DNA of 64,000 bases from Bacteroidales bacterium (lineage in GTDB: Bacteria; Bacteroidota; Bacteroidia; Bacteroidales; Muribaculaceae), in the NCBI GenBank assembly GCA_004555955.1, contig SFJG01000005.1:628-64627 (forward strand). Direction: 5' to 3'. The notes below the pieces were generated by a model that was not told the DNA's origin, did no database searches, and saw only the letters and a program-made list of their open reading frames with translations. Shown here in pieces: positions 109 through 25,332 of the stretch. The translations under genes and the position numbers were made by a program. Position 1 is the stretch's first letter. Each line of letters begins with the position of its first letter.

Positions 109-125
109 CCAATAACTAAACTATT

Positions 126-2330: not shown

Positions 2331-2355
2331 CTTTGCAAATTATATAGAAAGCGAT

Positions 2356-3819: not shown

Positions 3820-3822
3820 ACA

Positions 3823-5082
3823 ATGCTATATCATCTTTTCGACTATTTGTCACAATACGATTTGCCCGGGGCGCGATTGATGGGCTACATCTCATTTCGC
3901 GCCGCCGCGGCTCTCATCTTGTCAATTCTGATAGCAACCATCATCGGACGCCGCATCATCGACCGCCTGCAACTTATGCAAGTCGGCGAAATCGTTCGCA
4001 ACTTGGGCATCGAAGGGCAGATGAGCAAAACAGGCACACCGACAATGGGCGGTGTAATCATCATAATCGCAGTGCTTGTGCCCTGCTTGCTGGTGGGCAA
4101 CCTCACCAACACGTATATGCTGCTGATGATAGTGTCGACTCTTATGCTGGGCGCGCTCGGCTTCCTCGACGACTACAAGAAAATCAAGAAGCATAACAAA
4201 GACGGTTTGAAAGGCAAGTATAAGATTGTAGGACAGGTAGTTGTAGGTCTGATTGTCGGGCTTACGATGTATCTGAGTCCCGACATTGTGGTCAACGAAA
4301 ACGTAGAACAACCGGCAACCGACGGCGAGATTGAAGTGCTCTACAAGCCCACGGCGGAAAAGCAGCCCATCACGACCATCCCGTTTGTCAAAAGCAACAA
4401 CCTCAACTACGCTTGGTTCACCCAATGGGCAGGCGAGCATGCCGAAACCGCCGGATGGATTCTGTTCATACTGGTAACAATCTTCGTTGTGGCGGCAGTG
4501 TCGAACGGAGCCAACCTCACCGACGGGCTCGACGGACTTGCCACCGGGTCATCGGCGATAATCGGCGTGGCGCTGGCGGTGATGTGCTACCTGGGCGGCA
4601 ACATCGTCTATTCGTCGTATCTCAACATTATGTATATCCCCGGCAGCGGCGAATTGGTAGTCTATGCGGCTGCTTTCATCGGCGCTCTCGTCGGATTTTT
4701 GTGGTATAACGCCTACCCCGCTCAAGTGTTTATGGGCGATACGGGCAGTTTGACCATCGGCGGCATTATCGGCGTTTTTGCTATTTTGATTCGCAAAGAG
4801 CTGCTCATCCCGGTGCTTTGCGGAATCTTCTTGGTCGAAAACTTGTCGGTAATCATGCAAACCGGCTATTTCAAATACACCAAGAAAAAATACGGCGAAG
4901 GACGTCGCATCTTCAAGATGACACCGTTGCACCACCACTTCCAGAAGCAAGGCAACGCAGGAATTGTGGCAAAATGGCAGCATCCGATTAACCCGATTCC
5001 GGAATCGAAAATCGTTGTCCGATTCTGGATTGTTGGCATATTTCTTGCAATAATAACGTTTATAACACTTAAGATTAGATAG
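3823..5082 (+). CDS. mraY: Phospho-N-acetylmuramoyl-pentapeptide transferase
   Basis: Polytopic membrane protein with [10 protein letters not shown] and FMGDTGSL motifs, in the dcw position. Confidence 0.95.
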
Positions 5083-5086
5083 GAAA

Positions 5087-6436: not shown

Positions 6437-7761
6437 TGGAAAAAGATTTAGACAAAGTTGTTAAGGATAAACCGACGACCGAAGCGAACGAAAAGAAGAA
6501 CAAAATAGACAACTATGTTATCGGCATCTACATAACGCTGTGCATTTTGGCTGTCATCGAATCGTTCAGCGCCTCGGCACGCGAAATTGCGGCTACGGGG
6601 AGTGTCTACAAACCGATACTGAAGCATCTGTTGTTTCTGAGCGGCGGAACGCTTCTAATGCTCTACTTTGCCAAGAAAGAATACACCTGGTTTATCAGAT
6701 TCGGATGGTATTTCGTCGCCGCTACGGCGGTCGCTCTATTGGGTGCAATGTTTTTTGGAGGAAACGTAAACGACGCTTCGCGAAGTTTAAACATCCTGGG
6801 ATTTACAATACAGCCTGCCGAGATGGCAAAACTCGCCATCGTGTTTGCCCTCGCCACAATTCTTTCGAGTTGGATAAAGCAAAAAGGCAGAAGTCAACTC
6901 GAGATATGGGTTAGCGTAATGATTGTCGGCGTGTTTAGTATCTTACTCATTATGCAAGGCTTGACCAACACAATGCTGTTTATGGCAATCAGTTTGGTAA
7001 TGTACATCGTAGCCGGCGCATCGGTAAAACTTTGTGTTAAGGTATTAATCGTCTATAGCGTGATTGCCGGCAGCATCTACGGCATATCGGAAGTCATTGC
7101 AGCCCACCGACTTGAAGAACTCTCGAAAAACGAAGTAGTGGCAGAAAGCGCACAAGAGGAAAAAGGCAAAGAGTCGCAACTGCGAACGGACACGTGGGCG
7201 TCGCGCTTCAACAGTTATTTCAAGGAGGTGCTCGACACATGCCCGTCGAAAAACGAATCGATACTCAGCAGTCAACAGAAGACATATTCCTACATGGCGC
7301 AAGCCAACGGAGGTTGGTATGGCGTCGGCCTGGGACAGTCGCGCGAGACGAGTCGCTTGCCGCTGGCATTTTCCGACTACGTCTACTCGATTGTCATCGA
7401 AGAGAGCGGATTCATCGGCGGCACGCTCCTACTGGCGCTTTTCTTCAGTCTGATGATGCGAGCGGCATACATTGCCCGCCGATGCAAGCAAGCCTACCCC
7501 GCGCTACTCGTTATGGGTATGGCGGCGATGATTGTGCTGCAAGCATTCTCTCACATCGCCATCAACACCGGAATAGTCCCCGTGTCGGGACAAAACTTGC
7601 CGCTGATTTCAAAAGGCGGAACGTCGGTATTAGTCATCTGCATGGCTTTCGGCGTGATTATGAGCGTCAGCCGCACGGCTTCGACATCAACACAAAAGTC
7701 GAAAGCTGAAGAAAAATTGCCGGAAATGCTCAAGGCTGCAAACCCTACAACTGACAAATAA
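6436..7761 (+). CDS. ftsW: SEDS-family peptidoglycan polymerase / lipid II flippase FtsW
   Basis: Multi-TM protein with the C-terminal signature VPVSGQNLPLISKGGTS. Its start overlaps the murD stop (TAATG). Confidence 0.9.
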   Translation: MEKDLDKVVKDKPTTEANEKKNKIDNYVIGIYITLCILAVIESFSASAREIAATGSVYKPILKHLLFLSGGTLLMLYFAKKEYTWFIRFGWYFVAATAVALLGAMFFGGNVNDASRSLNILGFTIQPAEMAKLAIVFALATILSSWIKQKGRSQLEIWVSVMIVGVFSILLIMQGLTNTMLFMAISLVMYIVAGASVKLCVKVLIVYSVIAGSIYGISEVIAAHRLEELSKNEVVAESAQEEKGKESQLRTDTWASRFNSYFKEVLDTCPSKNESILSSQQKTYSYMAQANGGWYGVGLGQSRETSRLPLAFSDYVYSIVIEESGFIGGTLLLALFFSLMMRAAYIARRCKQAYPALLVMGMAAMIVLQAFSHIAINTGIVPVSGQNLPLISKGGTSVLVICMAFGVIMSVSRTASTSTQKSKAEEKLPEMLKAANPTTDK

Positions 7762-7763
7762 GA

Positions 7764-8876
7764 ATGACAAAGACAATGAAAATATTAGTTAGCGGAGGCG
7801 GTACGGGAGGACACATCTTCCCCGCACTCTCGATAGCCAACGGCATCAAAGAGCGTCATCCCGAGGCGGATATCCTCTTCGTCGGTGCCGAAAACCGTAT
7901 GGAAATGGAGAAAGTGCCGGCTGCGGGCTACCGCATCATCGGGCTCCCCGTGAGCGGATTCGACCGAAAGCACTTGTGGCGCAACGTCAAGGTCGTCGTT
8001 CGGCTATTCAAAAGTATGATGAAGGCGCGCAAGATTCTCCGCGAGTTCCAACCCGACATTGCCATCGGAGTTGGCGGATATGCAAGCGGGCCGATGCTCA
8101 AAGCGGCGCAAAAACGCGGCATTCCGACGCTCATTCAAGAGCAAAACTCTTACGCCGGCGTGACCAACAAACTGCTGGCAAAGCGCGCCGACGCTATCTG
8201 CGTGGCTTATGAGGGTATGGAGCGATTCTTCCCCGCCGACAAGATTACTCTCACCGGTAATCCCGTCCGACAATCAATACTCTCCTGCACGTTGACCCCA
8301 CAAGAAGCGCGCCGCCACTACAACCTCGACCCCGACAAGCCTACGGTGCTCGTCGTCGGCGGTAGCCTCGGCGCTCGTACAATCAACGAATGTGTAGCCG
8401 CCGCACTCAACATCATCGACATGTCGGGCGTACAGTTCATCTGGCAAACCGGCAAACTCTACGACAATGCCGCACGTGCCGTTATGGCTGAAAAGAAGCC
8501 ACAAAACGTCGTGCAGATGGCTTTTGTCACCGATATGGACATCGCCTACCGCGCAGCCGACCTGGTTGTGTCGCGTGCCGGAGCAAGTTCGATTTCCGAA
8601 CTGCAACTGCTCGGAAAAGCCTCAGTGCTCGTTCCTTCGCCAAACGTCGCCGAAGACCATCAGACGAAAAACGCCCGTGCATTGTCCGACCGCGATGCCG
8701 CAGTGTTTGTCAGCGACAGCGATGCTGAAACGTCGCTCATCAAGACCGTCCTCGACCTTATCGGAAAGCCCGAACAGCTTCACACTCTGGAGAAAAACGT
8801 GGCAAAAATGGCTCTGCGCAACTCGGTAGAGCGCATCGTCGACCGCGTCGACCAACTTATCGGCATTAACAAATAA
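7764..8876 (+). CDS. murG: UDP-GlcNAc:lipid I GlcNAc transferase
   Basis: SGGGTGGHIFPAL N-terminal motif and dcw position. The true start could be the second Met (MKILVSGGG, 7776). Confidence 0.95.
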   Translation: MTKTMKILVSGGGTGGHIFPALSIANGIKERHPEADILFVGAENRMEMEKVPAAGYRIIGLPVSGFDRKHLWRNVKVVVRLFKSMMKARKILREFQPDIAIGVGGYASGPMLKAAQKRGIPTLIQEQNSYAGVTNKLLAKRADAICVAYEGMERFFPADKITLTGNPVRQSILSCTLTPQEARRHYNLDPDKPTVLVVGGSLGARTINECVAAALNIIDMSGVQFIWQTGKLYDNAARAVMAEKKPQNVVQMAFVTDMDIAYRAADLVVSRAGASSISELQLLGKASVLVPSPNVAEDHQTKNARALSDRDAAVFVSDSDAETSLIKTVLDLIGKPEQLHTLEKNVAKMALRNSVERIVDRVDQLIGINK

Positions 8877-8890
8877 AACGATTTGAAAAA

Positions 8891-10255
8891 ATGAATATAT
8901 ACTTTGTAGGAGCCGGAGGAATCGGAATGGCTGCCCTTGTGAGATATTACCTCAACAAAGGCGCTCGCGTGGCAGGCTACGACCGCACTTCGACCGACTT
9001 GACATCCGACCTCATTAAAGAAGGCGCCGAAATCACATTCGACGACAACGCAGACACTATCCCGGAATACTGCCGCAATTCTGCCGACACTTTAGTAGTC
9101 TACACGCCGGCAATTCCCGACGACAACGCTATCCTGACCTACTTCCGTCAGGGCGGCTTCGACATACGCAAACGCGCACAAGTGCTCGGGCTGATTACCC
9201 ACGACACAAAGGGTCTCTGCTTCTCCGGAACTCACGGAAAAACGACCACGTCGAGCCTCGCCGCTCACATACTCCACACCTCACCGATTGGATGTAACGC
9301 ATTCCTGGGCGGCATTTTGCGAAACTACGGCAGCAACTTCCTCCTCAGCGAAACGAGCGATTATTCCGTCATCGAAGCCGACGAATTCGACCGCTCTTTC
9401 CACTGGCTCAGTCCATACATTGCCGTCGTAACAGCCACCGACCCCGACCATTTGGACATCTACGGCACAGAAGAGGCGTATCTCGAGAGTTTTGCGCACT
9501 TCACCGAACTCGTTCAACCCGGCGGCGCGCTCATCTGCCACACCGGGCTCAAACTGCGCCCGCGTCCTGCCGACGGCGTTAAAGTGTTCTCTTATTCGCG
9601 AAACGATGGCGACTTCCACGCCGAAAACATCCGAAAAGGAAACGGTGACATTACATTCGACTTCGTAGCCCCCGACACAGTGATTCGCAACATCCGCCTC
9701 GGCGTGCCCGTCGACATAAACATCGAAAACGCCGTGGCTTCGATAGCGGTGTGCCATCTTGTCGGCGTCGACAGCGAAAGCATCAAAACAGCCGTTGCAT
9801 CGTTTTTGGGTCCCAAACGTCGGTTCGAGTTTTGGCTCAAGCAACCCGACGGGCCCGTGATTATCGACGACTATGCACACCACCCCGACGAACTGAAAGC
9901 AAGCATCCGCTCCGTGCGCGACCTATATCCCGAACGCCGATTGAGCGTGATTTTCCAGCCACACCTCTACACCCGTACCCGCGACTTCGCCCCCGAATTT
10001 GCCGAAGCACTCTCGCTTGCCGACCAAGTGCTGCTGCTCGACATTTACCCCGCGCGCGAACTTCCCATCGATGGTGTGACCTCACAAATCATCCTCGACC
10101 GCATAAACTGCCCCGATAAAGCAATTTGCAATAAAAAAGACTTGCTCGAAACGATAAAAAATTATAACTTTGACGTACTTTTGACTGCAGGAGCCGGCGA
10201 CATATGCAACTACTTGCCGGAAATACGCAAAATTGTCGAAAACACAACCAAATGA
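8891..10255 (+). CDS. murC: UDP-MurNAc:L-Ala ligase
   Basis: GAGGIGMAAL N-terminus, SGTHGKTTT P-loop, and dcw position. Confidence 0.95.
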   Translation: MNIYFVGAGGIGMAALVRYYLNKGARVAGYDRTSTDLTSDLIKEGAEITFDDNADTIPEYCRNSADTLVVYTPAIPDDNAILTYFRQGGFDIRKRAQVLGLITHDTKGLCFSGTHGKTTTSSLAAHILHTSPIGCNAFLGGILRNYGSNFLLSETSDYSVIEADEFDRSFHWLSPYIAVVTATDPDHLDIYGTEEAYLESFAHFTELVQPGGALICHTGLKLRPRPADGVKVFSYSRNDGDFHAENIRKGNGDITFDFVAPDTVIRNIRLGVPVDINIENAVASIAVCHLVGVDSESIKTAVASFLGPKRRFEFWLKQPDGPVIIDDYAHHPDELKASIRSVRDLYPERRLSVIFQPHLYTRTRDFAPEFAEALSLADQVLLLDIYPARELPIDGVTSQIILDRINCPDKAICNKKDLLETIKNYNFDVLLTAGAGDICNYLPEIRKIVENTTK

Positions 10256-11097
10256 AAGTGAAGAAAATAACATTAATCGTTGTGTCGGTGCTACTCGCCG
10301 CCTACGTCGTTGTGGCTTTTCCATTCGTGAAATTGCTCAAGAAAGACGACTGTTGCAAAGACATCGACATCAACATAGACTACACCGAATCGGTGAAGTT
10401 TGTGTCATATGATTTTATTTCTTCACAATTGCACGAAATGGGCATCGACCCCATAGGCAAAAGGATTGCCGACATCGACATTGCCGACATCGAAAAACGC
10501 CTGAAAGGCAAAGACTATATCGAAAACGTAGAATGTTACTTTACCTCCGACAACCGGCTAGTCATCGACTTGCAGCCACTGCACCCGGTGATGCGCGTGT
10601 TCGACGCCGACGATTCCTACTACGTCAACAAAGAAGGTAAGCGAATGCAGAGCAACGCCAATTTCTTCATCGACCGACCGGTGGTCAAAGGAAGATTTAC
10701 CCCGGAATATCAGCCGACCCGATTGCTGCCGCTCATCGAATTTATGGAAAACAGCGAACGCTGGCGCAACCTGGCAGGAATGATTGAAGTGCGCGACAGC
10801 AACAACATCTTCCTCATCCCCAAGGTGGCAAACCACGTTATCAACCTCGGCAACACCGACGGACTCGAGTCGAAATTCGCCAAGTTAGCAAGAATGTACA
10901 ACGAAGTTATCCCCGTCAAAGGATGGAACTTCTACGACACGATAAGCCTGAAGTGGGACTATCAGATTGTGGCAACTCGCCGAAAAGGAGGCTCGCGACT
11001 TAACATCGTGGTCAGCACCGACGACGATGACGAACAAGCACCCGACATTTCGACAGTCGCTACCGAAACAAATACAAACGACAGTATAACGCATTAA
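10252..11097 (+). CDS. ftsQ: Cell division protein FtsQ-like
   Basis: The start was re-picked at the ATG at 10252 (MKVKKITLIVVSVLLAAYVVVAF...), which overlaps the murC stop as ATGA. The protein has a single N-terminal TM followed by an extracytoplasmic domain and lies between murC and ftsA. Confidence 0.75.
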   Translation: MKVKKITLIVVSVLLAAYVVVAFPFVKLLKKDDCCKDIDINIDYTESVKFVSYDFISSQLHEMGIDPIGKRIADIDIADIEKRLKGKDYIENVECYFTSDNRLVIDLQPLHPVMRVFDADDSYYVNKEGKRMQSNANFFIDRPVVKGRFTPEYQPTRLLPLIEFMENSERWRNLAGMIEVRDSNNIFLIPKVANHVINLGNTDGLESKFAKLARMYNEVIPVKGWNFYDTISLKWDYQIVATRRKGGSRLNIVVSTDDDDEQAPDISTVATETNTNDSITH

Positions 11098-14450: not shown

Positions 14451-15722
14451 ATGTTAACACTCGCTGCAATTAAAGAAAATCCGCAAGCAATCGTCGAACG
14501 CTTGAAAGTTAAGCACTTCGACGCTCAACAATTAATCAACGACATACTCGAGCTCGACAAAACCCGCCGCGCCGCTCAGACACAATTCGACCGCAACGGT
14601 GCCGAACTCAAGAAAGCAGCCGCACGCATCGGCGCCCTCATGAAAGAAGGCAAAAAAGACGAAGCGGAAGCCGCTAAAGCCGAAGTAGCCGCTCTCAAAG
14701 ACGCAAACAAGCGCATCGAAGAAGAATGCGACGCTGCCGGCGCAAAAATCACCGAAATCCTGCTCACAATCCCCAACACACCCTGCGAAATGGTTCCCGA
14801 AGGACGTACCGCAGAAGACAACATAGTTGAGCGTGAAGGCGGCAAAATCCCCGACCTCGGCGAAGACGCTCTTCCGCACTGGGAATTGGCGAAAAAATAC
14901 AACCTCATCGACTTCGAACTCGGTGTGAAAATCACCGGCGCAGGATTCCCCGTCTACATCGGTAAAGGCGCAAAACTCCAACGCGCTCTCATCCAATTCT
15001 TCCTCGACGAAGCTTCTAAAGCCGGCTACCTCGAAACTCAGCCGCCCTACGTCGTCAACGAAGCCTCCGGCATCGGCACAGGACAACTCCCCGACAAAGA
15101 AGGTCAGATGTATCACTGCAACCTCGACAACCTCTACCTTATCCCGACAGCCGAAGTGCCCGTAACTAACATATACCGCGACGTTATCATCGAAGAGAAA
15201 GACCTCCCGAAGAAAAACTGCGCCTACTCAGCTTGCTTCCGTCGCGAAGCCGGCTCTTACGGTAAAGACGTACGCGGACTGAACCGCCTTCACCAATTCG
15301 ACAAAGTGGAAATCGTGCGCATCGAAAAGCCCGAAAACTCGTACGCAGCTCTCGAAGAAATGAAAGCTCATGTGCAAAGCCTCGTCGAAAAACTCGAACT
15401 GCCCTGGCACATCTTGCGCCTCTGCGGCGGCGATATGAGCTTCACATCTGCTATCACTTTCGACTTCGAAGTATTCTCCGCAGCACAAAAACGCTGGTTG
15501 GAAGTTAGTTCGGTATCAAATTTCGAAAGCTATCAGGCAAACCGCTTGCACTGCCGCTACCGTGACGCAAACAAGAAAATCACGCTCTGCCACACCCTCA
15601 ACGGTTCGGCTCTCGCTCTGCCGCGCATCGTAGCTGCTTTGCTCGAAAACAACCAAACTCCCGAGGGAATCCGCATTCCCAAGGTACTCGTGCCCTACAC
15701 CGGCTTCGACATCATCGACTAA
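14451..15722 (+). CDS. serS: Seryl-tRNA synthetase
   Basis: 423-aa class II aaRS with an N-terminal coiled-coil arm, followed by CFRREAGSYGKDVRGLNRLHQFDKVE and the C-terminal NGSALALPR. Confidence 0.97.
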   Translation: MLTLAAIKENPQAIVERLKVKHFDAQQLINDILELDKTRRAAQTQFDRNGAELKKAAARIGALMKEGKKDEAEAAKAEVAALKDANKRIEEECDAAGAKITEILLTIPNTPCEMVPEGRTAEDNIVEREGGKIPDLGEDALPHWELAKKYNLIDFELGVKITGAGFPVYIGKGAKLQRALIQFFLDEASKAGYLETQPPYVVNEASGIGTGQLPDKEGQMYHCNLDNLYLIPTAEVPVTNIYRDVIIEEKDLPKKNCAYSACFRREAGSYGKDVRGLNRLHQFDKVEIVRIEKPENSYAALEEMKAHVQSLVEKLELPWHILRLCGGDMSFTSAITFDFEVFSAAQKRWLEVSSVSNFESYQANRLHCRYRDANKKITLCHTLNGSALALPRIVAALLENNQTPEGIRIPKVLVPYTGFDIID

Positions 15723-15776: not shown

Positions 15777-15817
15777 ATATGAGTCTGCGTTCAAAAATTT
15801 TGAACGCAGACTCATAT
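15777..15817. repeat. 41-bp near-perfect palindrome between the convergent serS and LMW-PTP genes
   Basis: The sequence atatgagtctgcgttcaaaa a ttttgaacgcagactcatat has arms of about 20 bp. No flanking U-tract is present on either strand. Confidence 0.7.
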
Positions 15818-15831
15818 TCTACTACTACTTT

Positions 15832-16317
15832 CTACCGAAAAATAGGCTTTGATGGCTGTAGTTTCCACTTCTCTACCAATCGTTTACAACCGTTTTCAAT
15901 ATGTTTAGCCACACGACGATATACGGCTGCAGTCTGGTAATACGGGTCTTCCACATTGCCGTCTTCATCCAATGCTATCTTATTGAACAGGACGATTCTG
16001 TTCCAATGGCTATAGTCCAATACTCGTGTTATGGCATCACGGTGACGCACGTCAAACACAATGATCGCATCAGCTGCCATCAGTTTCTCACGTGTCATAA
16101 CCGTGGTCGTACCACTAAGTTCATAGCCCAGTTCCTTCGCCACATCCACCATTGCAGCATTACGAGGATTCTCTCCCCAATCCAATGTGCCCAGTGAGGA
16201 TACTTCGATGCCATTCATTCCGGCATCTGCCAAGAGTTTCTTCGTCACACATTCTGCGAATGGTGACCGACTGGCATTGCCTGTGCATACAAAGCAAATC
16301 TTGTAGTTCATGTTCAT
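15832..16317 (-). CDS. Low-molecular-weight protein-tyrosine phosphatase
   Basis: N-terminal CX5R(S) loop CTGNASRS and a C-terminal DPYY general-acid motif. The protein is 161 aa. Confidence 0.85.
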   Translation of the reverse strand: MNMNYKICFVCTGNASRSPFAECVTKKLLADAGMNGIEVSSLGTLDWGENPRNAAMVDVAKELGYELSGTTTVMTREKLMAADAIIVFDVRHRDAITRVLDYSHWNRIVLFNKIALDEDGNVEDPYYQTAAVYRRVAKHIENGCKRLVEKWKLQPSKPIFR

Positions 16318-16508
16318 TCAAAATTACGGTTTACATTAAACAAATGCTTTTTACGTCTCAGAAACACTGCCTCATAGTCTGTGGGCAACCCCGGTGTGGC
16401 AAGCTCGTCGGGAGTGATTGCCTTGATAATGCTGTTGAGTCTTGTGGCAATGTCATCGCAGCGGAACTCCTTTTTCTCCACATAGCGATGCCCTCTCATT
16501 TCCGGCAC
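16314..16508 (-). CDS. Small ORF of unknown function (possibly the 3' part of a disrupted ~100-aa gene)
   Basis: Its TGA overlaps the LMW-PTP ATG (ATGA at 16314-16317), which suggests translation. The listed start is GTG. A second short frame (MLSALYDGLEAQVVDDCPIALYYVMHPFVPFRCRK*, about 16509-16602) overlaps its 5' end in another frame. Confidence 0.35.
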   Translation of the reverse strand: MPEMRGHRYVEKKEFRCDDIATRLNSIIKAITPDELATPGLPTDYEAVFLRRKKHLFNVNRNFE

Positions 16509-16627
16509 CTGAACGGCACGAACGGGTGCATCACATAGTAAAGCGCAATGGGGCAGTCATCAACCACCTGTGCTTCCAGCCCGTCATACAGAGCTGAAAG
16601 CATCGCCGTGGTCTTGTCTCACTAACA

Positions 16628-17140
16628 TTATTCTTGTCTCAACAAATAGTTTACCACACTTTCCCAACCGGGGAATTCATTATTGCCAAACTGAATCCAT
16701 TTTCCTTCAAACTCACTTGTGCCATTCTTGCCACGGTCATCAATGAGATAGTCGCCTTTACAGAGGTTCTTGCAATGGGTAATGACCATACGTTTGTGGA
16801 ACACATCATCCAAATAACGTGTCACCCACTTCACCTTATCTGACCATGCCGAAGGATTCTTCCAAGGGGCTGTAGAGAGGATGTAGAGGTCAAAATGCTC
16901 TTGCAACGTGTGCATAGCCTCGATGGCTCCCGGCATAGGTTTCATCTCGGCAAAGAGGCCGGGAATCTCATCAAGACGTCCTTCGTATTCTTTTTTGATC
17001 TCATCTGACTGAAGGTCAAGTCCCGATTGAAAATCCACAAGCACATTGTCCATATCTACAAACACTCGTTTCTTCCTTCGAATTGACTTCTCCTCCAGTT
17101 CATGCCCATTTTGTGTGGTAGCAATAAAATTTTCTTCCAT
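16628..17140 (-). CDS. HAD-superfamily 5'(3')-deoxyribonucleotidase (NT5C family)
   Basis: The DxDxV motif VDMDNVLVDF, followed by STAPWKNPSAWSDKVKWV and a DYLIDDRGKNG pattern typical of NT5C-like enzymes. Confidence 0.85.
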   Translation of the reverse strand: MEENFIATTQNGHELEEKSIRRKKRVFVDMDNVLVDFQSGLDLQSDEIKKEYEGRLDEIPGLFAEMKPMPGAIEAMHTLQEHFDLYILSTAPWKNPSAWSDKVKWVTRYLDDVFHKRMVITHCKNLCKGDYLIDDRGKNGTSEFEGKWIQFGNNEFPGWESVVNYLLRQE

Positions 17141-17235
17141 TTTTCAATTCTTTTTTTCGTTCACATTACTTCTTTATGTAGTATGAGATACTGTTGTAAC
17201 CTATTTCCCATCACAAATAATCCAGAGTTTTCTTG

Positions 17236-19746
17236 TCAGACGTCCCCTGATTTCATTTCACAATAACGCTCATACCACCGGCGCTTCTCCGGTGTGTCGA
17301 TAGGGTCATATTCGCTGATGATACAGCTTGTATAGAGGTCATCGGCAAGAGTGAGGATGATGTTGGAGAGTTCAAGAGTCTGCTCCAGCTCCTTGCCTTG
17401 CGGACAGAACAGTCGCTTGCGCTTCATAGCCTCATACCCATATATCGCACCCATGATGTTGCCGCACACGGCACCCGTGGAATCGCTGTCACCATCGTGG
17501 TTGACAGCTGCGATGATGGCATCCTCTATGCTGTCAATATGACGCACAGCGGAGTAGAGAGCAATAGCCCATGCTTCTTCGCCGGTCCATCCCTCACCGA
17601 GCATGCGGATGTTCTCTGCATCGCTCTTGTCGTTGGCGGCAAGCGCCACAGCCATACGGGTAAGGTTGGCAAGGTAATGCTTGTCTTCCTCATATTCTCC
17701 CTTGTAGATGTTATCAAGCGCATCAATGGTGTCAAGGGCGATGTCCGCAATGTTAGCCTTTACTTCCGTCTCTTCCATCCTTATCACACGGTAGATAAGG
17801 TGTGTCAGCATAGCCGAGGGCAGGAACGCCAAGGGGTGCTTATGGGTGACAGCCGCCACTTCAGCTCCGGCTTCATCCATTTGCTGAACATTGTAGAACG
17901 ACTCGCCACGACTCCAATAACCTGCCATGAGCAGTGCCATAGGAGCCACTCGCATAACGCCACCGCAGCCCTTACTGTTGTTCTGCACCTCTTTGCCTTG
18001 GAACAAACTCTCACAAGCCGACAGGCAGGTGTTTCCGGGAGCACGGCGGTGAGCCAGTTCGGGAAGGTCGCGGAGCCATGTGTAGTGAAAATCATTGGTC
18101 AGAATCTGCTTTTTCTTGCCTGTTTGCGTGTAATACCAGTCAAGGTAGGCTCCATCCACATATTTCTCCGGCTGTCCGCCGATGCCTCGCATATAGCCAC
18201 GTGTCACTCCCATCAGCATACCGCAGGCAGTGAAGAGCGTCATCTGTGTGTCATCACTGACCAACGCCTTGCCTTCTGAGTCCAGGTCGAACTTCGTTAT
18301 ACCCTTGTCGCCATATTGGGCAAGGATACTCCTGCGGCTCATGAACTCCACCGTATAACCCAACGCATCTCCTGCCCCACCTGCCATCAGCGAGCCACGG
18401 ATACGGTCTTTCGTCCTCAACTTCATAACTTCTTTCTTTTCAGTACAACTGTCGACAAACTTTCTCACGAAATCAATCTGTTCGTGTGTCTCAGGAGACT
18501 TGCGGTGCGAAGCCTTAGGCATTTCCGAGAAACGGCTTCGCATAGCGGTTAGTGCCTTCTCCAAAGTAGGCTCTTTCATCTGTCGTGCTTCATAGCACGC
18601 CACGATGGTACCTGTACGGCCTACACCTCCCCAGCAATGGATATAAGTATAACCGTCCTGCTTCATCAGATATTCCATCTTGTCAATGAGTTGATGCACA
18701 GCCTCTACTGACGCCGGTACATTTACATCACGAATTGGAAAGCGAAGATAGGTGGTGTCCCCGGGCAACAGTTGGCGATAAGGTCGCAATTCGCCCTCTT
18801 CGGTGAGGTCAACGAAATGACGCACGCCAAAGTGATGCATTCTCTTCAGTTTTGCTTCTGCCGGTTCCACATTCTTGTCCCCGGGATATTCCCCGGCGAA
18901 CAGTTTCCCACCGCAATAATACGACTGATGCAACGGACGGCTGACGAATGCCTCAAAGCGGTCATTGATGTCGAGCAAATCCGGCGGAAGCAGCGCACGA
19001 CATTGGTTGACAAGATATTCAGAGAAACTGCCGCCTATTACGCTGAAACGTCGTGCTCCGGCAATCGAGGCCGTCATTGCTCCAATGGTGTCGGAATCGC
19101 CACCCATGGAAATGGCAAGCCGCAATGCCTTCTCGGCAGGATAACCGCTTCGTTCGAGATAAGCCTTGATGGCAATGGGCACACTGCCTTGACAAGTCAC
19201 GTCAAAGCCGTATGCATCACGGATGCCATCCAATTTGAAGTTAAGGTTATAGCCTATCTTCTCTGTAACGAAATGCCGTATCTCCTCTTCTGCACAGAGC
19301 GATTTGTTTTTATGGAGAAACACACAACCGGCTATGGCTTGTGCTCCCTTGATACCCTCTGGATGGTTATGAGTGACGGAAGCCGTGATGCGTGCCAACT
19401 CCAATGCCTCTTCCAGCGAATTGGCATAAAGTCCCACAGGGCTTACCCTCATGGCAGAACCATTGCCAAAACTGCCGTAGGGCTGCGGATGGTCGCTCAT
19501 CAGCCACTTGGAGAACATCTTGCCATAGCCGGCATGAGGGTATTTCCTTCCCAAACGCTGCATACATGCCACCAATGTCTCAGGCCGATGCTCAGGGTCG
19601 GTCATCAGCCACTCAGCCACGGCAAGTGTCATCACCGTGTCGTCCGTGAACCTGCTTCCCTTAGGAACCAGTTCAAAATCTTCTGTCTTTATGTTGTGCC
19701 ACTCGCGGGTGCTGCCCACGATGTCGCCTATGATTGCTCCTAACAA
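17236..19746 (-). CDS. Three-domain fusion: ADP-ribosylglycohydrolase - Cys-based (dual-specificity/PTP-like) phosphatase - ADP-ribosylglycohydrolase
   Basis: Residues 1-235 form ARH domain 1 (GDIVGS..., FTDDTVMTLA, GGDSDTIGAM). Residues about 275-435 form the phosphatase, with the HCWGGVGRTGT CX5R loop (Cys371, nt about 18634-18636). Residues about 445-800 form ARH domain 2 (GGAGDALGYTVEF, SDDTQMTLF, DGDSDSTGAVCG). Confidence 0.85.
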   Translation of the reverse strand: MLGAIIGDIVGSTREWHNIKTEDFELVPKGSRFTDDTVMTLAVAEWLMTDPEHRPETLVACMQRLGRKYPHAGYGKMFSKWLMSDHPQPYGSFGNGSAMRVSPVGLYANSLEEALELARITASVTHNHPEGIKGAQAIAGCVFLHKNKSLCAEEEIRHFVTEKIGYNLNFKLDGIRDAYGFDVTCQGSVPIAIKAYLERSGYPAEKALRLAISMGGDSDTIGAMTASIAGARRFSVIGGSFSEYLVNQCRALLPPDLLDINDRFEAFVSRPLHQSYYCGGKLFAGEYPGDKNVEPAEAKLKRMHHFGVRHFVDLTEEGELRPYRQLLPGDTTYLRFPIRDVNVPASVEAVHQLIDKMEYLMKQDGYTYIHCWGGVGRTGTIVACYEARQMKEPTLEKALTAMRSRFSEMPKASHRKSPETHEQIDFVRKFVDSCTEKKEVMKLRTKDRIRGSLMAGGAGDALGYTVEFMSRRSILAQYGDKGITKFDLDSEGKALVSDDTQMTLFTACGMLMGVTRGYMRGIGGQPEKYVDGAYLDWYYTQTGKKKQILTNDFHYTWLRDLPELAHRRAPGNTCLSACESLFQGKEVQNNSKGCGGVMRVAPMALLMAGYWSRGESFYNVQQMDEAGAEVAAVTHKHPLAFLPSAMLTHLIYRVIRMEETEVKANIADIALDTIDALDNIYKGEYEEDKHYLANLTRMAVALAANDKSDAENIRMLGEGWTGEEAWAIALYSAVRHIDSIEDAIIAAVNHDGDSDSTGAVCGNIMGAIYGYEAMKRKRLFCPQGKELEQTLELSNIILTLADDLYTSCIISEYDPIDTPEKRRWYERYCEMKSGDV

Positions 19747-19761
19747 AATATTGCAAATTCT

Positions 19762-19991
19762 AAAATAAACTTCGTTGATTTTAGGCTACGCTCGGCATAG
19801 CATTCAAGCAAGCTTAATGCTCTGCTCTCGTTTGAAGTAAAATTAACTTCGTTGATTTTAGGCGGCGCTCGGCATAGCATCAAGCAAGCTTGATGCTATG
19901 CTCTCGCTTGAAGTAAAATTAACTTCGTTGATTTTAGGCGGCGCTCGGCATAGCATTCAAGCAAGCTTGATGCTCTGCTCTCGCTTGCACT
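19762..19991. repeat. Three tandem copies (77/76/77 bp) of a palindromic extragenic element
   Basis: The unit is aaaattaacttcgttgattttaggcggcgctcggcatagcat(t)caagcaagcttgatgct(a/c)tgctctcgcttgaagt. Each copy contains a stem of about 13 bp around a gcaagc loop. The array fills the gap between the Nudix-wHTH gene and the ARH fusion gene. Confidence 0.85.
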
Positions 19992-20688
19992 AAAATTCCA
20001 ATCTGAATCCCTTTTGCTTCAGTTCTTCGTATTTCGCCTTGTTGAAGCGAAAGAGAAACGCCTCCTTCTTCTGCGACGGATTTACCGTCTCATCGGTCTG
20101 CTCAAGCATTTCCAGCCGCCTCATCTTGTTGTAAAAATTGCGGCGGTCGAAACGCACGTCGAGTATCGCCTCGTAGAGGTTCTGCAATTGCTTGATGGTA
20201 AACTCCTCAGGCAGCAGTTCAAATCCGACGGGTTCAAAGTGAATCTGCTGACGCAACGCCTGCTCCGCCTTGCGAAGAATTTGGTCGTGGTCGAACGCCA
20301 ACTGCGGCACTTCGTCGAGCGCAAACCAGCCGGCATCGGCTGCATCATCGCCACCTTTCACCTCTTGCAACCGCACCAACGCATAGTAGGCAATGGTGAT
20401 AACACGTTCACGCGGGTCGCGATGCGGAGCGGTGAAAGTGTGAAACTGCCGAATGTATGCCCCCTTCAAGCCGGTCTCTTCCTGCAACTCTCGAAGCGCT
20501 CCTGTTTCGGCACATTCGTCCATCCTGAGAAATCCGCCCGGCAAAGCCCATCGTCCCTTGTAAGGCTCAATGCCGCGCTCCACTAAAAGAACTCTCAACT
20601 TCGTGCCGTCAAAGCCGAATATAACACAGTCGGTCGTTACACTCGGATGCGGATACTTGTAATGATATTTATATTCTTCGTCCATCAC
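19990..20688 (-). CDS. Nudix hydrolase fused to a C-terminal winged-helix domain (NrtR-like architecture)
   Basis: Intact Nudix box GGFLRMDECAETGALRELQEETGL. The C-terminal ~80 aa (FTIKQLQNLYEAILDVRFDRRNFYNKMRRLEML) resemble the NrtR wHTH. Confidence 0.8.
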   Translation of the reverse strand: MMDEEYKYHYKYPHPSVTTDCVIFGFDGTKLRVLLVERGIEPYKGRWALPGGFLRMDECAETGALRELQEETGLKGAYIRQFHTFTAPHRDPRERVITIAYYALVRLQEVKGGDDAADAGWFALDEVPQLAFDHDQILRKAEQALRQQIHFEPVGFELLPEEFTIKQLQNLYEAILDVRFDRRNFYNKMRRLEMLEQTDETVNPSQKKEAFLFRFNKAKYEELKQKGFRLEF

Positions 20689-20696
20689 ATTTTATT

Positions 20697-21089
20697 TTAT
20701 TTATTTAAACAACAAACAAACCCACGCGGCAAAATGACGTTCTCCACATCGATAGCATCCGCAAAAAGCGGAGCAATATCCTTATCGCGAAATCCGGCAA
20801 TGCCGCAACCGATTCGCGTTACAAGAAACGTAAGCTCCCTATGCTCCTTAGCAAAACGAATAAAGTCGTCGACGTAGGGCTTGATAGTATTCACGCCGCC
20901 TTGCATCGTCGGGATGGCATACGTTCTGCCGTACAGCCCCACGCCCTTGCCCCATTCAGCGCCAAATTGGCGAAAAGCCAGTCGCGCAGCACCGCCGCCG
21001 TGCATACCCGCAAGATTGCTGCCAAACACGAAAATCTCATTCGCTGCCAGCTCCGAAATCATATCGGGAGTAAATCTTCTATTATACAT
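20697..21089 (-). CDS. Rossmann-like nucleotide-binding/processing protein (LOG/DprA/SLOG-like; resembles what I recall as the 'A1S_2505-like' family)
   Basis: The start was re-picked at the ATG at 21089 (MYNRRF...). The listed ORF begins at an upstream TTG. The motif IFVFGSNLAGMHGGGAARLA...GRTYAIPT...VTRIGCGIAGF is present. The stop lies 8 nt before the Nudix start. The family name comes from memory only. Confidence 0.5.
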   Translation of the reverse strand: MYNRRFTPDMISELAANEIFVFGSNLAGMHGGGAARLAFRQFGAEWGKGVGLYGRTYAIPTMQGGVNTIKPYVDDFIRFAKEHRELTFLVTRIGCGIAGFRDKDIAPLFADAIDVENVILPRGFVCCLNK

Positions 21090-21151
21090 AATAACTTTTA
21101 CATTTAAAAACCACATACATAACCGCCCGATGCTAACACAACAAAGGCGAA

Positions 21152-21222
21152 ATGTAAATTTTACACCACAAAGAAAAGACAAAAAAATCAATAATACAAA
21201 TAATCACGCGTAAAATTTACGC
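21152..21222. promoter_or_regulatory. Two related palindromes (GTAAA-N-TTTAC core) upstream of the SLOG-like/Nudix-wHTH operon; candidate operators
   Basis: TGTAAATTTTACA at 21153-21165 and GCGTAAAATTTACGC at 21208-21222 lie 64-133 nt upstream of the ATG at 21089. Confidence 0.3.
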
Positions 21223-21412: not shown

Positions 21413-22390
21413 ATGAAAAAGGTATTGGTAACCGGAGCAGATGGCTTTATCGGTTCGCATCTGACCGAAATGTTGCTCGCTGAGGGCTACGAAGTGCGTG
21501 CGCTGAGCGTGTATAACTCGTTTAACTATTGGGGCTGGCTCGACGGGCTGCGCCACGAGCGTTTGGAAGTGGTGTGCGGCGATGTTCGCGACCCGAATTT
21601 CTGCCGAGAAGCGGCACGCGGTTGCGACACGATATTCCATCTGGCGGCGCTGATAGCCATACCGTATAGTTACGTAGCACCCGACAGTTATGTCGATACC
21701 AACATCAAGGGCACGCTAAACATTTGCCAAGCGGCGCGCGATTGTGGCGTACGGCGCGTGATTGTAACATCGACATCGGAGGTCTACGGCACAGCGCGCT
21801 ATGTGCCTATAGATGAGGCGCATCCGCGGCAACCGCAGTCGCCTTATTCCGCAACGAAAATCGGTGCCGATGCCATAGCGAAGAGTTTCTACAATGCGTT
21901 TGAATTGCCGGTGGTAATTGCGCGTCCATTCAATACCTACGGTCCGCGTCAGAGTGCTCGTGCGATTATACCGACAATTATCACGCAGATTGCCAACGGC
22001 GTTCGCGAGATTCATGTGGGCGACCTCACGCCGACGCGCGACTTCAACTATGTGAAAGACACCTGCCGCGGATTTATTGCGCTTGCGCTTGCTGAAGGCG
22101 TTGAAGGTGAGGAGATTAACATCTGCTCAAAGAGTGAGATTTCTATGAAAGACACCCTTCAACTCATTGCGCAACTTATGGAAGCCGACGTTACATGGGT
22201 GCAGGATGCAGAGCGAATTCGGCCGAAAAATTCCGAGGTGTTCCGCTTGTTTGGCGACAACACGAAGATATGCAGTTTGACAGATTGGCGCCCGCAATAC
22301 AGCATTGCAGACGGGTTGCGCGAAACGATTGCGTGGTTCAGCAATCCCGACAATTTGGCGAAATATAAATATGACATCTACAACCGATGA
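21413..22390 (+). CDS. NAD-dependent sugar-nucleotide epimerase/dehydratase (extended SDR)
   Basis: VTGADGFIGSHL glycine-rich loop and the catalytic YSATK (YxxxK). The protein is 325 aa. Confidence 0.85.
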   Translation: MKKVLVTGADGFIGSHLTEMLLAEGYEVRALSVYNSFNYWGWLDGLRHERLEVVCGDVRDPNFCREAARGCDTIFHLAALIAIPYSYVAPDSYVDTNIKGTLNICQAARDCGVRRVIVTSTSEVYGTARYVPIDEAHPRQPQSPYSATKIGADAIAKSFYNAFELPVVIARPFNTYGPRQSARAIIPTIITQIANGVREIHVGDLTPTRDFNYVKDTCRGFIALALAEGVEGEEINICSKSEISMKDTLQLIAQLMEADVTWVQDAERIRPKNSEVFRLFGDNTKICSLTDWRPQYSIADGLRETIAWFSNPDNLAKYKYDIYNR

Positions 22391-23328
22391 GCGAGCGAGT
22401 CAATGTGTTGATGCTTGGCGGAGCCAAGCGCGTGTCGCTGGCGCGTCTGCTCAAGTCGGCGGGTAGCCGCTTGGGTATTGATGTGAGCATAGTCAGTTAC
22501 GAGATAGTGCCGGAGGTGCCGATAGCGTCGGAGGGCGAAGTTGTTGTGGGACTGCGTTGGCGCGATGCCGGCATCTATGACAGCCTGGCGCAGGTCATTT
22601 CGGAGCGAGATATCAACGTTGTTTTGCCGTTTGTCGACGGCGCTATTGAGATATGCTCGGCGCTTCGTCGACGTCATCCCGACGTGTTTATTCCGGTGAG
22701 CGACTTCGAGGTGGCGCATAAGATGTTCGACAAGGCGGAAGCGGCTCGCGTCTTTGCCACGCACGGGTTCGACATTCCTGCGACGTACGACGGCAACGAC
22801 TGTCGCTTTCCCGCAATTTTGAAGCCCCGCGAAGGTTCGGCTTCGCGCGGCATCGTCGTTGCTCGCACGGCGAAAGACCTTGCCGAGGCGGGCGATTTGA
22901 GCCGATATCTTGTTCAGGAATATATAGAAAATGCCGACGAATACACTGTTGACTGCTACGTTTCGACTGTCAGTGGGCGCGTTGCATGTGCCGTGCCGCG
23001 GCTCCGTATTTCGACGTCGGGAGGGGAAGTCGACCGCACGGAAACGCGCCGCATTCCGACTCTTATGCAACAGTCGGAGCACATTCTTACCGAGTTAAAG
23101 TTTCGCGGCCCCATAACGCTGCAATTCTTACACGATAAGGCGACCGACCGCTATCTGCTGATGGAGATAAATCCGCGCCTCGGCGGCGGCGTGGTTTGCT
23201 CAATACATGCCGGCGCCGACATTGCCGAAATGATACTTCGCGAAAGTCGAGGTGAAGAGGCTCGTCGCATCGATGATTGGCGCGACCGCGCACTGATGAC
23301 GCGCTATTTTGCCGAGGTAATGTTTTGA
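22387..23328 (+). CDS. ATP-grasp domain ligase (CarB-short/PylC-like)
   Basis: KPREGSASRGI, QEYI...EYTVDCY and LMEINPRLGGG are ATP-grasp hallmarks. The start overlaps the SDR stop (ATGA). Confidence 0.8.
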   Translation: MSERVNVLMLGGAKRVSLARLLKSAGSRLGIDVSIVSYEIVPEVPIASEGEVVVGLRWRDAGIYDSLAQVISERDINVVLPFVDGAIEICSALRRRHPDVFIPVSDFEVAHKMFDKAEAARVFATHGFDIPATYDGNDCRFPAILKPREGSASRGIVVARTAKDLAEAGDLSRYLVQEYIENADEYTVDCYVSTVSGRVACAVPRLRISTSGGEVDRTETRRIPTLMQQSEHILTELKFRGPITLQFLHDKATDRYLLMEINPRLGGGVVCSIHAGADIAEMILRESRGEEARRIDDWRDRALMTRYFAEVMF

Positions 23329-23333
23329 CCCTA

Positions 23334-24560
23334 TCAGCGAAGGCGATTGCGGAGGAAGTGTTTAGACGTGAACGCCAAGTAGGCAATCAACCCGACAACA
23401 CACAGGCAAAGGCAGAGCCGATAGACCGTGTGATAGCTCGTCGCTTCGGCAAGATATCCCGCGAAGAAAATGCCGATTCCGGCGCCGACGTCCCACGACG
23501 TCAGGTAGGTTGAATTGGCTGTGCCGCGGCGGCTGTTGGGTGCCAAGTTGATAAACATCGACTGATACGACGGGCACATCGTTCCATAGCCGATGCCGAT
23601 GATGATTGCCGAGAGGTAGAAGCCGAAGTTGCAGCGCCATTCAGTGAAGAGCACAAATCCGAGAGTTACGAGAGCCATGCCGGTCTTGACGCACCGCACG
23701 ATTTTGCCGTCGCGGACGAGTTTGTTTGTGGCAATTCGCGAGGCGATAAGTCCTGCTGCGAGCAGCAGAAAGTAGACACCCGAGCCGGCATAGATGCCTA
23801 ATTCCGTTTTGCCGTAGATAGCCAAGTAGGTGGTAAGCGTAGCGCTCGAGAAGGCAAATGTGGTAAGCGTGATGCCTTCGGGAAGACTGTTGTGGAGGAA
23901 GAAACGGTCGAGCGAGAGAGTTGTGTCGGGCTTGACCACGGCGCGCGGCTTGTTGCGAACCATTGTCAGGCATACAACACCAAGTAGAGTGGCAACGAAG
24001 GGCACGGCGAACACGATGTGTATATTGTCGACGCGACTATACATTGCCAGCGCCACCGAAGGGCCGATAGCCATGGCGAGGTTGTTGCTAATGCCATAGT
24101 AGCCAATACCTTCGCTGCGGCGCGACGACGGAAGCACGTCGATGGCAACCGTGCTGTTCGACACCGAAGTGGCGCCGAAAGCCAAGCCTTGCAGCACGCG
24201 GACTATGGCAAAAGCCAAAACGGTGCTGACAGCGATATAGCCGATGTTGAGGAGCGTGTAGGCGCCGTAGCAGAACAGCAGCACTTTCTTGCGTGGTAGG
24301 CTGTCGACGATGTATCCGCTGAAGGGGCGGATGAAGAGTGCGGAGATGATGAATCCGCTCATCACTTGTCCGATTACGCTACGGTCGGCTCCACAATGCT
24401 CCGCAAGATAAATAGGCAAGATGGGGAGTATGTTGTTAAACGAGAAAAAGAGTAGAAAATTTGCTACCATCACCAGACAATAGTTGCGATTCCACAACTT
24501 GTCGCCCGGCGTTTCGACTATATACGGGTCGAAATCGTTTTCTGTTTTATTGCTATCCAT
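23334..24560 (-). CDS. MFS transporter
   Basis: About 12 predicted TM helices. The start was re-picked at MDSNKTENDF (ATG at 24560) to avoid overlap with TatD. Confidence 0.85.
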   Translation of the reverse strand: MDSNKTENDFDPYIVETPGDKLWNRNYCLVMVANFLLFFSFNNILPILPIYLAEHCGADRSVIGQVMSGFIISALFIRPFSGYIVDSLPRKKVLLFCYGAYTLLNIGYIAVSTVLAFAIVRVLQGLAFGATSVSNSTVAIDVLPSSRRSEGIGYYGISNNLAMAIGPSVALAMYSRVDNIHIVFAVPFVATLLGVVCLTMVRNKPRAVVKPDTTLSLDRFFLHNSLPEGITLTTFAFSSATLTTYLAIYGKTELGIYAGSGVYFLLLAAGLIASRIATNKLVRDGKIVRCVKTGMALVTLGFVLFTEWRCNFGFYLSAIIIGIGYGTMCPSYQSMFINLAPNSRRGTANSTYLTSWDVGAGIGIFFAGYLAEATSYHTVYRLCLCLCVVGLIAYLAFTSKHFLRNRLR

Positions 24561-24561
24561 T

Positions 24562-25332
24562 TTAAATATCGATATCGAAAAAACGTTGGGCGTTGGCGTC
24601 GGTTCGCGCCGACACTTCGTCGATGGTCGTGCCGAGAAGTTCTGCAATCTTAGCCGCGATGTGCGGGATATAAGCGCTCTCGTTTCGGCGTCCGCGGAAG
24701 GGGACGGGCGTTAGATAGGGGCAATCTGTTTCGAGGAGAATTCGGTCGAGCCCGATTGCAGGCAAGACGTCGCCGAGTTTGGAATTTTTGAACGTGACGA
24801 TACCGTTGATGCCGAAAAGGAAGTCACCGCGGCGGCGAATAGCCTCAACGTCGTCGACGGTTCCGCCAAAGCTGTGGAACACACATTTGGGCAACGTTCC
24901 GCCGTAGTTGTCGAACGTCCACAAAATTTCGTCAAGCCCTTCGCGGCAATGGATGATTACCGGCAAGCCGGTGCGTTCAGCCCAACGGAGTTGTTCGTCG
25001 AACACCTCGATTTGCTCGTTTCGGTAGGTCTTGTCCCAGTAAAGGTCGATGCCCACTTCGCCTACGGCAACGAAGCCGCCACGGTCGAAAATCGCCTTTA
25101 CGGCAGCCAAATCGCTGCGGAAGTTTTCGCCTACGGAGGTTGGGTGAAGCCCCATTGCAACCGAGGTGTATGCCGGGAAGGCACGGTGCAACGCCATCAT
25201 CGGTTCGACGGTGTCGAGGTCGACGTTGGGCAGCACCAAGTGGCGCACACCGGCTTGGCGTGCGCGAGCAACCACATCGCTGCGGTCGGCATCGAATTCT
25301 TCAAGATAGATATGCGAATGAGAGTCAATCAT
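24562..25332 (-). CDS. TatD-family metal-dependent hydrolase
   Basis: N-terminal DSHSHIY. The protein is a 256-aa TIM-barrel hydrolase pattern with CVFHSFGG and ETDCPYL. Confidence 0.9.
   Translation of the reverse strand: MIDSHSHIYLEEFDADRSDVVARARQAGVRHLVLPNVDLDTVEPMMALHRAFPAYTSVAMGLHPTSVGENFRSDLAAVKAIFDRGGFVAVGEVGIDLYWDKTYRNEQIEVFDEQLRWAERTGLPVIIHCREGLDEILWTFDNYGGTLPKCVFHSFGGTVDDVEAIRRRGDFLFGINGIVTFKNSKLGDVLPAIGLDRILLETDCPYLTPVPFRGRRNESAYIPHIAAKIAELLGTTIDEVSARTDANAQRFFDIDI

Follow-up and report, generated by a model that had tools for sequence, protein, structure and literature searches.

Bacterial systems centred on an ADP-ribosylglycohydrolase (ARG) were predicted by Iyer, Burroughs, Anantharaman and Aravind (2022; Viruses 14:1977, section 3.8) to counter viral ADP-ribosylation. 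As described in that section, such systems contain an ARG without a partner transferase, a repressor of the Nudix-HTH or WYL type, phosphatases from the R-P (rhodanese-phosphatase) superfamily that are fused to it or adjacent, a HAD 5'-nucleotidase, chaperones (vWA, TY-Chap1–3; SseB) that are frequent but not universal, Macro or NADAR erasers and variable effectors, and ADP-ribose is proposed as their inducer. Here, we describe a locus of this kind at positions 15832–21222 of a 64,000-nt stretch (hereafter the window) of contig SFJG01000005.1, from the Muribaculaceae assembly GCA_004555955.1, a Candidatus Limisoma-like representative of gut Bacteroidales. It is made of six open reading frames (ORFs) on the minus strand, flanked by serS (14451–15722, plus strand) and by an epimerase/ATP-grasp pair (21413–23328, plus strand); these encode, in the order of reading, a predicted macro-like protein of the A1S_2505 family, a Nudix–winged-helix regulator, a large fusion of two ARG domains with a dual-specificity phosphatase (DSP) domain, an NT5C-type nucleotidase, a pseudogene scar and a low-molecular-weight protein tyrosine phosphatase (LMW-PTP). 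We consider it somewhat better than an even bet that the locus is a reduced version of an autorepressed operon of the NrtR type that is exchanged horizontally, and that its products form a toolkit for the removal and disposal of ADP-ribose directed against foreign ADP-ribosyltransferases (ARTs).

Judged by predicted domains, the window locus and its sister islands fit the published parts list item by item. The window has the ARG core with no linked transferase (neither an ART nor a sirtuin was found among the six ORFs and the four flanking genes scanned), the Nudix-HTH regulator, a DSP domain of the R-P superfamily fused within the ARG protein and an adjacent LMW-PTP, the HAD 5'-nucleotidase, and a putative extra eraser, macro-like by predicted fold; TY-Chap1, vWA and AAA proteins are found in sister islands, and a conserved core is combined with variable modules between close genomes, as set out in section 3.8 (Iyer et al. 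2022). There are also differences. The main text of that paper names actinobacteria, planctomycetes and proteobacteria but not Bacteroidales; the constant element here is the regulator, the ARG being present at 20 of the 54 species-level loci that have 3 kb or more of sequence downstream, on which all cargo counts given here are based; the putative extra eraser is a member of the A1S_2505 family, not counted as Macro by Pfam; the window copy has neither chaperone nor effector genes; and the operator/promoter architecture and the 77-nt repeat described below do not figure in section 3.8. The locus is well supported as a new example of the class predicted in 2022, and not as a new kind of system. 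What appears to be new is the Bacteroidales clade, the operator/promoter architecture, the universally intact Nudix box of its regulators, the eraser-linked macro-like A1S_2505 protein and the regulator-linked repeat.

Enzymatic immunity by ARH or PARG proteins against ART toxins is established, including immunity to the prophage toxin Bxa in Bacteroides, and gp30.3, or AdfN, is a proven DNA ADP-ribosylglycohydrolase that defeats DarT1. Tri1 of Serratia, BAH of Bacteroides stercoris, the PARG directed against RhsP2, DarG and AdfN resemble the predicted erasers of the window in being ADP-ribosylhydrolases that reverse the modification made by a toxin, and the C-terminal ARG domain of the window protein shows weak similarity to Tri1, DraG and ARH1. 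However, each of these is found next to its toxin or works alone, whereas the window locus has no toxin and is predicted to join several eraser types and phosphatases under a dedicated sensor-repressor. The DraT/DraG nitrogenase system likewise has an ARG-family hydrolase with equal metal-site motifs, but there is no DraT or nitrogenase context here, and the DraG equivalog score is 93.5, against a cut-off of 337 bits. Our literature search found no experimental demonstration of a host system that undoes the ADP-ribosylation made by invaders.

The six ORFs lie where a preliminary description, made from the letters of the window alone, had placed them, and profile searches bore out several of its labels: the Nudix and winged-helix domains in NrtR architecture (NUDIX, 2.7e-20; NrtR_WHD, 1.6e-21), the ARH–CX5R phosphatase–ARH fusion (two ADP_ribosyl_GH domains, 1.3e-88, around a DSP-PTPase domain with HCWGGVGRT), the NT5C-type nucleotidase (6.9e-17, with the DMDNV motif) and the LMW-PTP (LMWPc, 8.1e-25, with CTGNASRS and DPYY). 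The translational coupling that it reported for several of the ORFs could apply at two tight junctions: the TAA of the first gene (20697–20699) precedes the GTG (20688) and the ATG (20685) of the Nudix gene by 8–11 nt, and an ATGA overlap at 16314–16317 joins the scar ORF to the LMW-PTP gene. The three other junctions are long (243, 95, and 119 nt), and the widest of them, between the Nudix and ARG genes, is filled by a tandem 77-bp repeat absent from that description. A perfect inverted repeat, read from the sequence at 15777–15817 between the convergent serS and LMW-PTP genes, is a likely two-way terminator that would end the operon; our sigma-70 promoter and terminator scan is uninformative for Bacteroidetes. 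In the best reading, a single autoregulated promoter would drive transcription of the whole co-oriented array as far as this inverted repeat. The serS, YqeY-like and FtsZ genes were recognised by sequence.

The regulator (19990–20688, minus strand; PF00293 and PF21906), whose start is probably the ATG rather than the GTG, matches the NCBIfam NtrR model at 137.5 bits, under the equivalog cut-off of 400, and the nearest solved structure is that of BtAraR (5bs6, 6.5e-51). It shares with the NrtR and AraR regulators the Nudix and winged-helix domains and, as predicted here, the GT-N7-AC palindrome and tandem sites at an autoregulated operon (Rodionov 2008; Chang 2015). The Nudix box, degenerate or impaired in the arabinose regulator BtAraR and in the classical NAD-type NrtR proteins (Chang 2015), is by contrast intact in the window regulator (GFLRMDECAETGALRELQEETGL), and the full GX5EX7REUXEEXGU box is kept in 89 of 89 regulator homologues, a conservation that speaks for a ligand of the nucleotide-diphosphate type and perhaps for true hydrolase activity. 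The predicted regulon differs as well, the operon holding no genes for NAD synthesis or salvage or for pentose use; the absence of NAD-biosynthesis genes had been pointed out in the preliminary description, and none was found inside the island or adjoining it by profile and sequence checks.

A 15-bp palindrome, GYGTAAWNWTTACRC, with the GT-N7-AC core that is the consensus of NrtR-family sites (Rodionov 2008), is present in two copies upstream of the first gene. The first predicted operator, O1 (GCGTAAATTTTACGC, 21208–21222), is a perfect 7-1-7 palindrome with the GT-N7-AC core, and the second, O2 (GTGTAAAATTTACAT on the coding strand, 21152–21166), stands 56 bp from it. Between the two lie promoter elements of the minus strand (21169–21200), namely TTTG at 21197–21200, a 20-nt spacer and TTTCTTTG at 21169–21176, which is TAnnTTTG with one mismatch. 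TTTG and TAnnTTTG make up the promoter form of Bacteroides and of Bacteroidetes. Most related loci have TTTG, about 20 nt and TAcCTTTG at the equivalent place between paired operators. Across 1.28 Mb of related loci, the operator motif has 144 occurrences, compared with 9 in shuffled sequence, and its positions are strongly skewed, 116 being within 130 nt upstream of a regulator gene and 2 downstream. Of 88 related loci, 69 have one site or more and 47 a pair with a spacing of about 55 bp; the motif corresponding to O1 stands some 95 nt upstream of the regulator gene in most of the related loci, and about 10 nt separate the end of the second operator from the start codon. In the window and in the two closest genomes, the macro-like gene stands between promoter and regulator, with the operator pair upstream of it; among the loci examined, operators far from the regulator (window, L010 and L011) are separated from it by cargo, for instance the macro-like gene. 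A search of the 64-kb window gave no further operator, only a single match at chance level (3 mismatches). This predicted NrtR-type double operator, present in the locus and conserved across its relatives, supports a regulated module.

Relatives were sampled in two sets, nine loci anchored on the ARG protein and a regulator-anchored set, in which 80 were kept from 305 hits at one genome per species. The regulator stands directly upstream in nine of nine ARG-anchored loci, with differing chromosomal contexts and downstream genes. The kept regulators are 79–95% identical and come from Muribaculaceae, Prevotellaceae, Bacteroidaceae, Paludibacteraceae and other groups; several genomes hold two copies. 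An eraser of any type (ARG, macro-like or gp30.3/NADAR) is present at 40 of the 54 loci, the macro-like gene at 31 and gp30.3/NADAR at 12, to which Pfam adds two loci with canonical NADAR. The other cargo includes vWA-like proteins (16 loci), AAA (11), TY-Chap1 (10), LMW-PTP (9), DSP-like phosphatases (8) and NT5C (3). In sister islands, profile searches gave a TY-Chap1 match at 3e-05 and a weak vWA match. The downstream cargo is co-oriented with the regulator in 214 of 218 hits. The constant feature is thus the regulator and not the six-gene set, which the neighbourhood check proposed in the preliminary description recovered at no other sampled locus. Its idea of an ADP-ribosylation-reversal module survives as regards a regulated island distinct from NAD housekeeping, to which the operators, the eraser linkage and the published parts list all point, and not as regards six genes forming a conserved unit.

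In L011, the nearest genome, the flanks have about 90% nucleotide identity to those of the window. At the equivalent site, it has the macro-like gene and the regulator only, then an opposite-strand gene and then serS. This opposite-strand gene (L011, 10824–11564) encodes a NERD (nuclease-related) domain and occupies the place of the window's ARG-to-LMW-PTP cargo. At a larger scale, loci of Phocaeicola and Prevotella are 88–93% identical at the nucleotide level over more than 13 kb, a similarity which shows recent transfer of islands between bacterial families. Exchange of such islands between major gut families is of relevance to warfare by phages and toxins in the gut. The shared region of more than 13 kb contains the regulator island (L012, L016, L022, and L061). 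In one of these loci, L016, co-oriented genes for a CHAT protease, a Big_2 protein and a PP2C phosphatase lie upstream of the regulator (1–10000), and their arrangement suggests that the L016-type region is a larger mobile conflict island.

This distribution also bears on a housekeeping role, in which the locus would recycle or detoxify the ADP-ribose produced by NAD turnover, or reverse an endogenous ADP-ribosylation in the manner of DraG or of the Streptomyces nrtR-draG genes. The classical signal of NrtR regulators is the ADP-ribose that NAD turnover releases, the nrtR-draG pairing in Streptomyces forms a gene cluster (Rodionov 2008), and a Nudix enzyme, a nucleotidase and phosphatases could together form a degradation route. 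Yet near-identical genomes differ in presence or absence at one site, the cargo is shuffled and transferred between families, the island and its flanks have no partner transferase and no NAD genes, and sister islands include chaperones, AAA, vWA and CHAT proteins, which are typical of conflict systems. We therefore regard a housekeeping role as improbable.

The first gene of the operon (20697–21089, minus strand) encodes a 130-aa protein of the A1S_2505 family (NCBIfam NF049995, 9.4e-44). The preliminary description had seen a Rossmann or SLOG-like protein in it, an assignment that we reject, since the protein has no SLOG-type match in Pfam or NCBIfam and no LOG, DprA or YpsA structure is among its best 50 structural matches; family scans and the fold search point instead to a macro-like member of the A1S_2505 family. 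No Pfam family was matched at all. The AlphaFold2 model (mean predicted confidence, pLDDT, 82.7), when compared with the PDB by Foldseek, retrieved macrodomains for almost all of the best 50 matches, including MacroD-type proteins, macroH2A, PARP9 macro 2, TARG1, DarG, YmdB and Poa1p. The scores are modest (TMq 0.45–0.64, E of about 0.01, root-mean-square deviation 4–6 Å, probability 0.5–0.99 with the best at 0.9 or above). Among the BFVD viral models, its own family was matched first and viral macrodomains next, the own-family matches including domains in crAss-like phage polyproteins, one of which is annotated as ART-PolyVal-like. The A1S_2505 sequence profile reaches no macrodomain among PDB sequences, so that the link to macrodomains is one of fold, and we describe the fold of the 130-aa protein as predicted to be macro-like. 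Two invariant glycine-rich loops, FVFGSN..G.HG.GAA and IGCG.AG, would in our reading of the model sit where macrodomains hold ADP-ribose.

In close relatives of the window's ARG protein, the A1S_2505 domain forms the C-terminal part of 967-, 984-, and 1109-aa forms, and elsewhere it is repeatedly fused to ARG, microbial PARG, DSP phosphatase or DUF1810 domains. These repeated fusions tie A1S_2505, a large uncharacterised family of phages and bacteria (4,899 clusters at 50% identity), to ADP-ribose chemistry. Further fusions of the domain (P0243, P0246, P0265, and P0362) involve a Ser/Thr protein kinase, a complete EF-Tu-like GTPase, a microbial PARG and leucine-rich repeats of the BspA type. 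A literature search on the function of A1S_2505 and DUF1810 returned nothing useful.

The NCBIfam name of this family is "A1S_2505 family phage non-structural protein" (A1S_2505_Nterm); the window protein matches phrog_2072, the family is carried by 422 phage records, and in N4-like phages the gene lies in the early region. Such a distribution would be in keeping with another explanation, namely that the island is cargo of mobile elements and acts in counter-defence, erasing ADP-ribose marks or degrading the ADP-ribose-derived signals of the recipient's defences. DarTG-type DNA modification, mRNA ADP-ribosylation and TIR/Thoeris-type signals are the conceivable targets, and the element or a resident prophage would be helped to establish itself. 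The sister cargo gp30.3 corresponds to AdfN, a proven anti-DarT1 factor, and both the near identity of islands in different bacterial families and the two copies held by several genomes speak for this view. On the other hand, housekeeping genes flank the window copy, integrase, conjugation and phage structural genes are absent from its vicinity, its repressor-controlled, inducible design suits the response of a resident host, and a scan of viral contigs with the ARG protein, which detects close relatives only, gave no hits. We take counter-defence to be unlikely, though a serious contender, and favour protection of the host, to which we give slightly better than even chances.

The ARG protein itself (17236–19746, minus strand) is an 836-aa ARG–DSP–ARG fusion with a TTG start and two PF03747 domains around the DSP domain. 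Its N-terminal ARG domain is ARH3-like and its C-terminal one DraG/ARH1/Tri1-like, and both have the metal-site motifs (S/T)DDT and D(S)D(T/S). Homologues number 4761 and likewise start with MLGAIIGD. A 74% identical ARG–DSP–ARG homologue in L001–L003 (8001–10514) does not have the HC(X)5R(S/T) motif, and its phosphatase domain may be inactive. The stop codon of the window's ARG gene is overlapped by the remnant of a DUF1810 gene (17211–17237, minus strand), reduced to its last 8 codons and stop (DKKTLDYL*) and recognised against the C-terminus of P0013. The HAD/NT5C-type nucleotidase that follows (170 aa, 16628–17140, minus strand) has homologues in islands L019 (89%) and L087 (71%), and its 5' end is chimeric, the first 16 codons and the upstream linker coming from a gp30.3-type cargo gene.

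The 64-aa ORF that the preliminary description counted as a component of the system is not a small protein in its own right. It matches no family, and the sequence at 16314–16618 (minus strand) is a pseudogene scar of two cargo genes, in which the head of x181 (16556–16618; about 21 codons from the 5' end of this common gene, at 90% identity) is joined to a DSP-like tail (16314–16558). The latter starts with 15 codons (137–151) of a 218-aa DSP-like phosphatase gene, after which there is a frameshift and then the final 62 codons or so of the same gene, which are the ORF in question; the DSP-like portion is about 82 codons in all, and the CX5R motif is deleted. The LMW-PTP (161 aa, 15832–16317, minus strand) is found in nine other sampled islands at 83–92% identity (72% in L060), and in L012, L016, L022 and L061 its gene directly follows the 218-aa DSP-like gene. 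By this comparison, the ATGA overlap between scar and LMW-PTP gene is inherited from an intact DSP-like/LMW-PTP pair. A full-length model of the island is provided by L096, where the order is regulator, ARG fusion, macro-like/DUF1810, gp30.3/UPF0227, x181, DSP-like, LMW-PTP, AAA, x157, TY-Chap1, vWA and WG-repeat genes; the window copy looks like a deletion derivative of an L096-like island that has gained the NT5C gene.

Such damage raises the question of whether the copy in the window is a remnant in decay, under no selection for function here, with a parent system that is perhaps functional elsewhere. The DUF1810 tail, the frameshifted x181/DSP-like fusion and the chimeric NT5C 5' end would all be in keeping with this view, as would the instability of the spacer repeat between strains and the gene fragments also seen in sister loci (e.g., L042 and L025). 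However, no catalytic motif is missing from the five large ORFs, all of them intact, operators and promoter are undamaged too, and in metagenome contigs of the same species the ARG protein is retained at 98% identity and the regulator at 99%. Decay without function thus seems to us a rather remote explanation.

In the host-protective reading that we favour, dimers of the Nudix–winged-helix protein, bound to the two palindromes that bracket the sole recognisable promoter, would keep expression of the operon low. A foreign ART, from a phage or a toxin, would modify a host protein or nucleic acid, and basal eraser activity would release ADP-ribose. Binding of this ADP-ribose by the Nudix domain would take the repressor off the DNA, and the whole co-oriented array would be transcribed. 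The macro-like protein and the two ARG domains, ARH3-like and DraG/ARH1-like, would then cut different ADP-ribose linkages, and the Nudix site of the regulator, the HAD nucleotidase, the DSP domain and the LMW-PTP would degrade ADP-ribose or its phosphorylated derivatives, so that the inducer would be removed and the switch reset. Candidate attackers in the gut niche are crAss-like phage proteins with ART-PolyVal domains and the Bacteroides prophage ART Bxa, which is met by an ARH immunity protein.

Several observations weigh against this scenario. The nearest solved relative of the regulator senses arabinose and not ADP-ribose. There is no operator before the ARG gene, which is separated from the regulator by a 243-nt structured repeat, so that co-transcription is assumed. 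The nearest relative of the locus is without four of the six genes, the window copy has three deletion scars and may be decaying, and all five identifiable proteins also occur in phage protein families, which fits counter-defence equally well. Finally, PADLOC has no model for such a system and returned only a weak Nudix hit.

A more specific version of the scenario may be put forward tentatively, the chances being against it as a whole: the regulator would be a catalytically active Nudix enzyme, at once a sensor and a destroyer of ADP-ribose and hence a self-resetting switch, anchoring a cassette-exchange platform traded among gut Bacteroidales families. Its mixes of erasers, with A1S_2505 as a hitherto unrecognised family of macro-like erasers among them, would give broad immunity to the ARTs of crAss-like phages and to prophage toxins of the Bxa type, and the 77-nt hairpin would mark the exchange point or tune read-through. 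With its defined pair of operators, one promoter, a regulator that is easy to purify and naturally varying eraser sets, the clade offers a compact test case.

The 77-nt tandem unit is present in three copies in the spacer between the Nudix and ARG genes (19761–19989, minus strand; 3.1 copies at 93% according to TRF). Each unit contains a hairpin of about 14–16 pairs and a conserved A/T-rich tail; compensatory change is seen in 7 of 16 predicted hairpin pairs, and the folding of the spacer compared with shuffles gives z = -6.2. The unit is found only directly 3' of the regulator, at 11 of 89 loci, and in an unbiased metagenome scan nine of nine hits had this position. Contigs of the same species have one or two units, with the hairpin deleted in some, and this strain variation indicates that the repeat is unstable and dispensable. 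A role as operator was rejected, as the stem shows covariation, no GT-N7-AC motif is present and strains of the same species have lost the hairpin. Possible roles are a modulation of read-through, an effect on the stability of the mRNA or service as a joint for recombination; Rfam has no match for the repeat. Elsewhere in the window, a non-coding sequence (62386–62577), also without a match in Rfam, is 91% identical to that directly 3' of the L010 regulator gene (10692–10883), and might be a second copy of the island-border sequence or a small RNA.

On the other side of the island, the preliminary description took the flanking epimerase and ATP-grasp genes to be an unrelated pair. The epimerase, ATP-grasp (ATPgrasp_Ter, PF15632) and MFS transporter genes of the window (21413–24647) are absent at the equivalent site in L010 and L011. 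In L067, a homologous pair of epimerase and ATP-grasp genes is found directly upstream of the regulator, in its orientation, and in L066 an epimerase homologue is upstream; the flanking pair may perhaps not be unrelated to the island. The rest of the window contains other tandem arrays, at 40527–40767 (39-, 57-, and 96-bp units) and at 53246–53369 and 62126–62232 (33-bp units), and three tRNA genes recognised by Rfam (34207–34281, 36335–36405, and 36632–36705).

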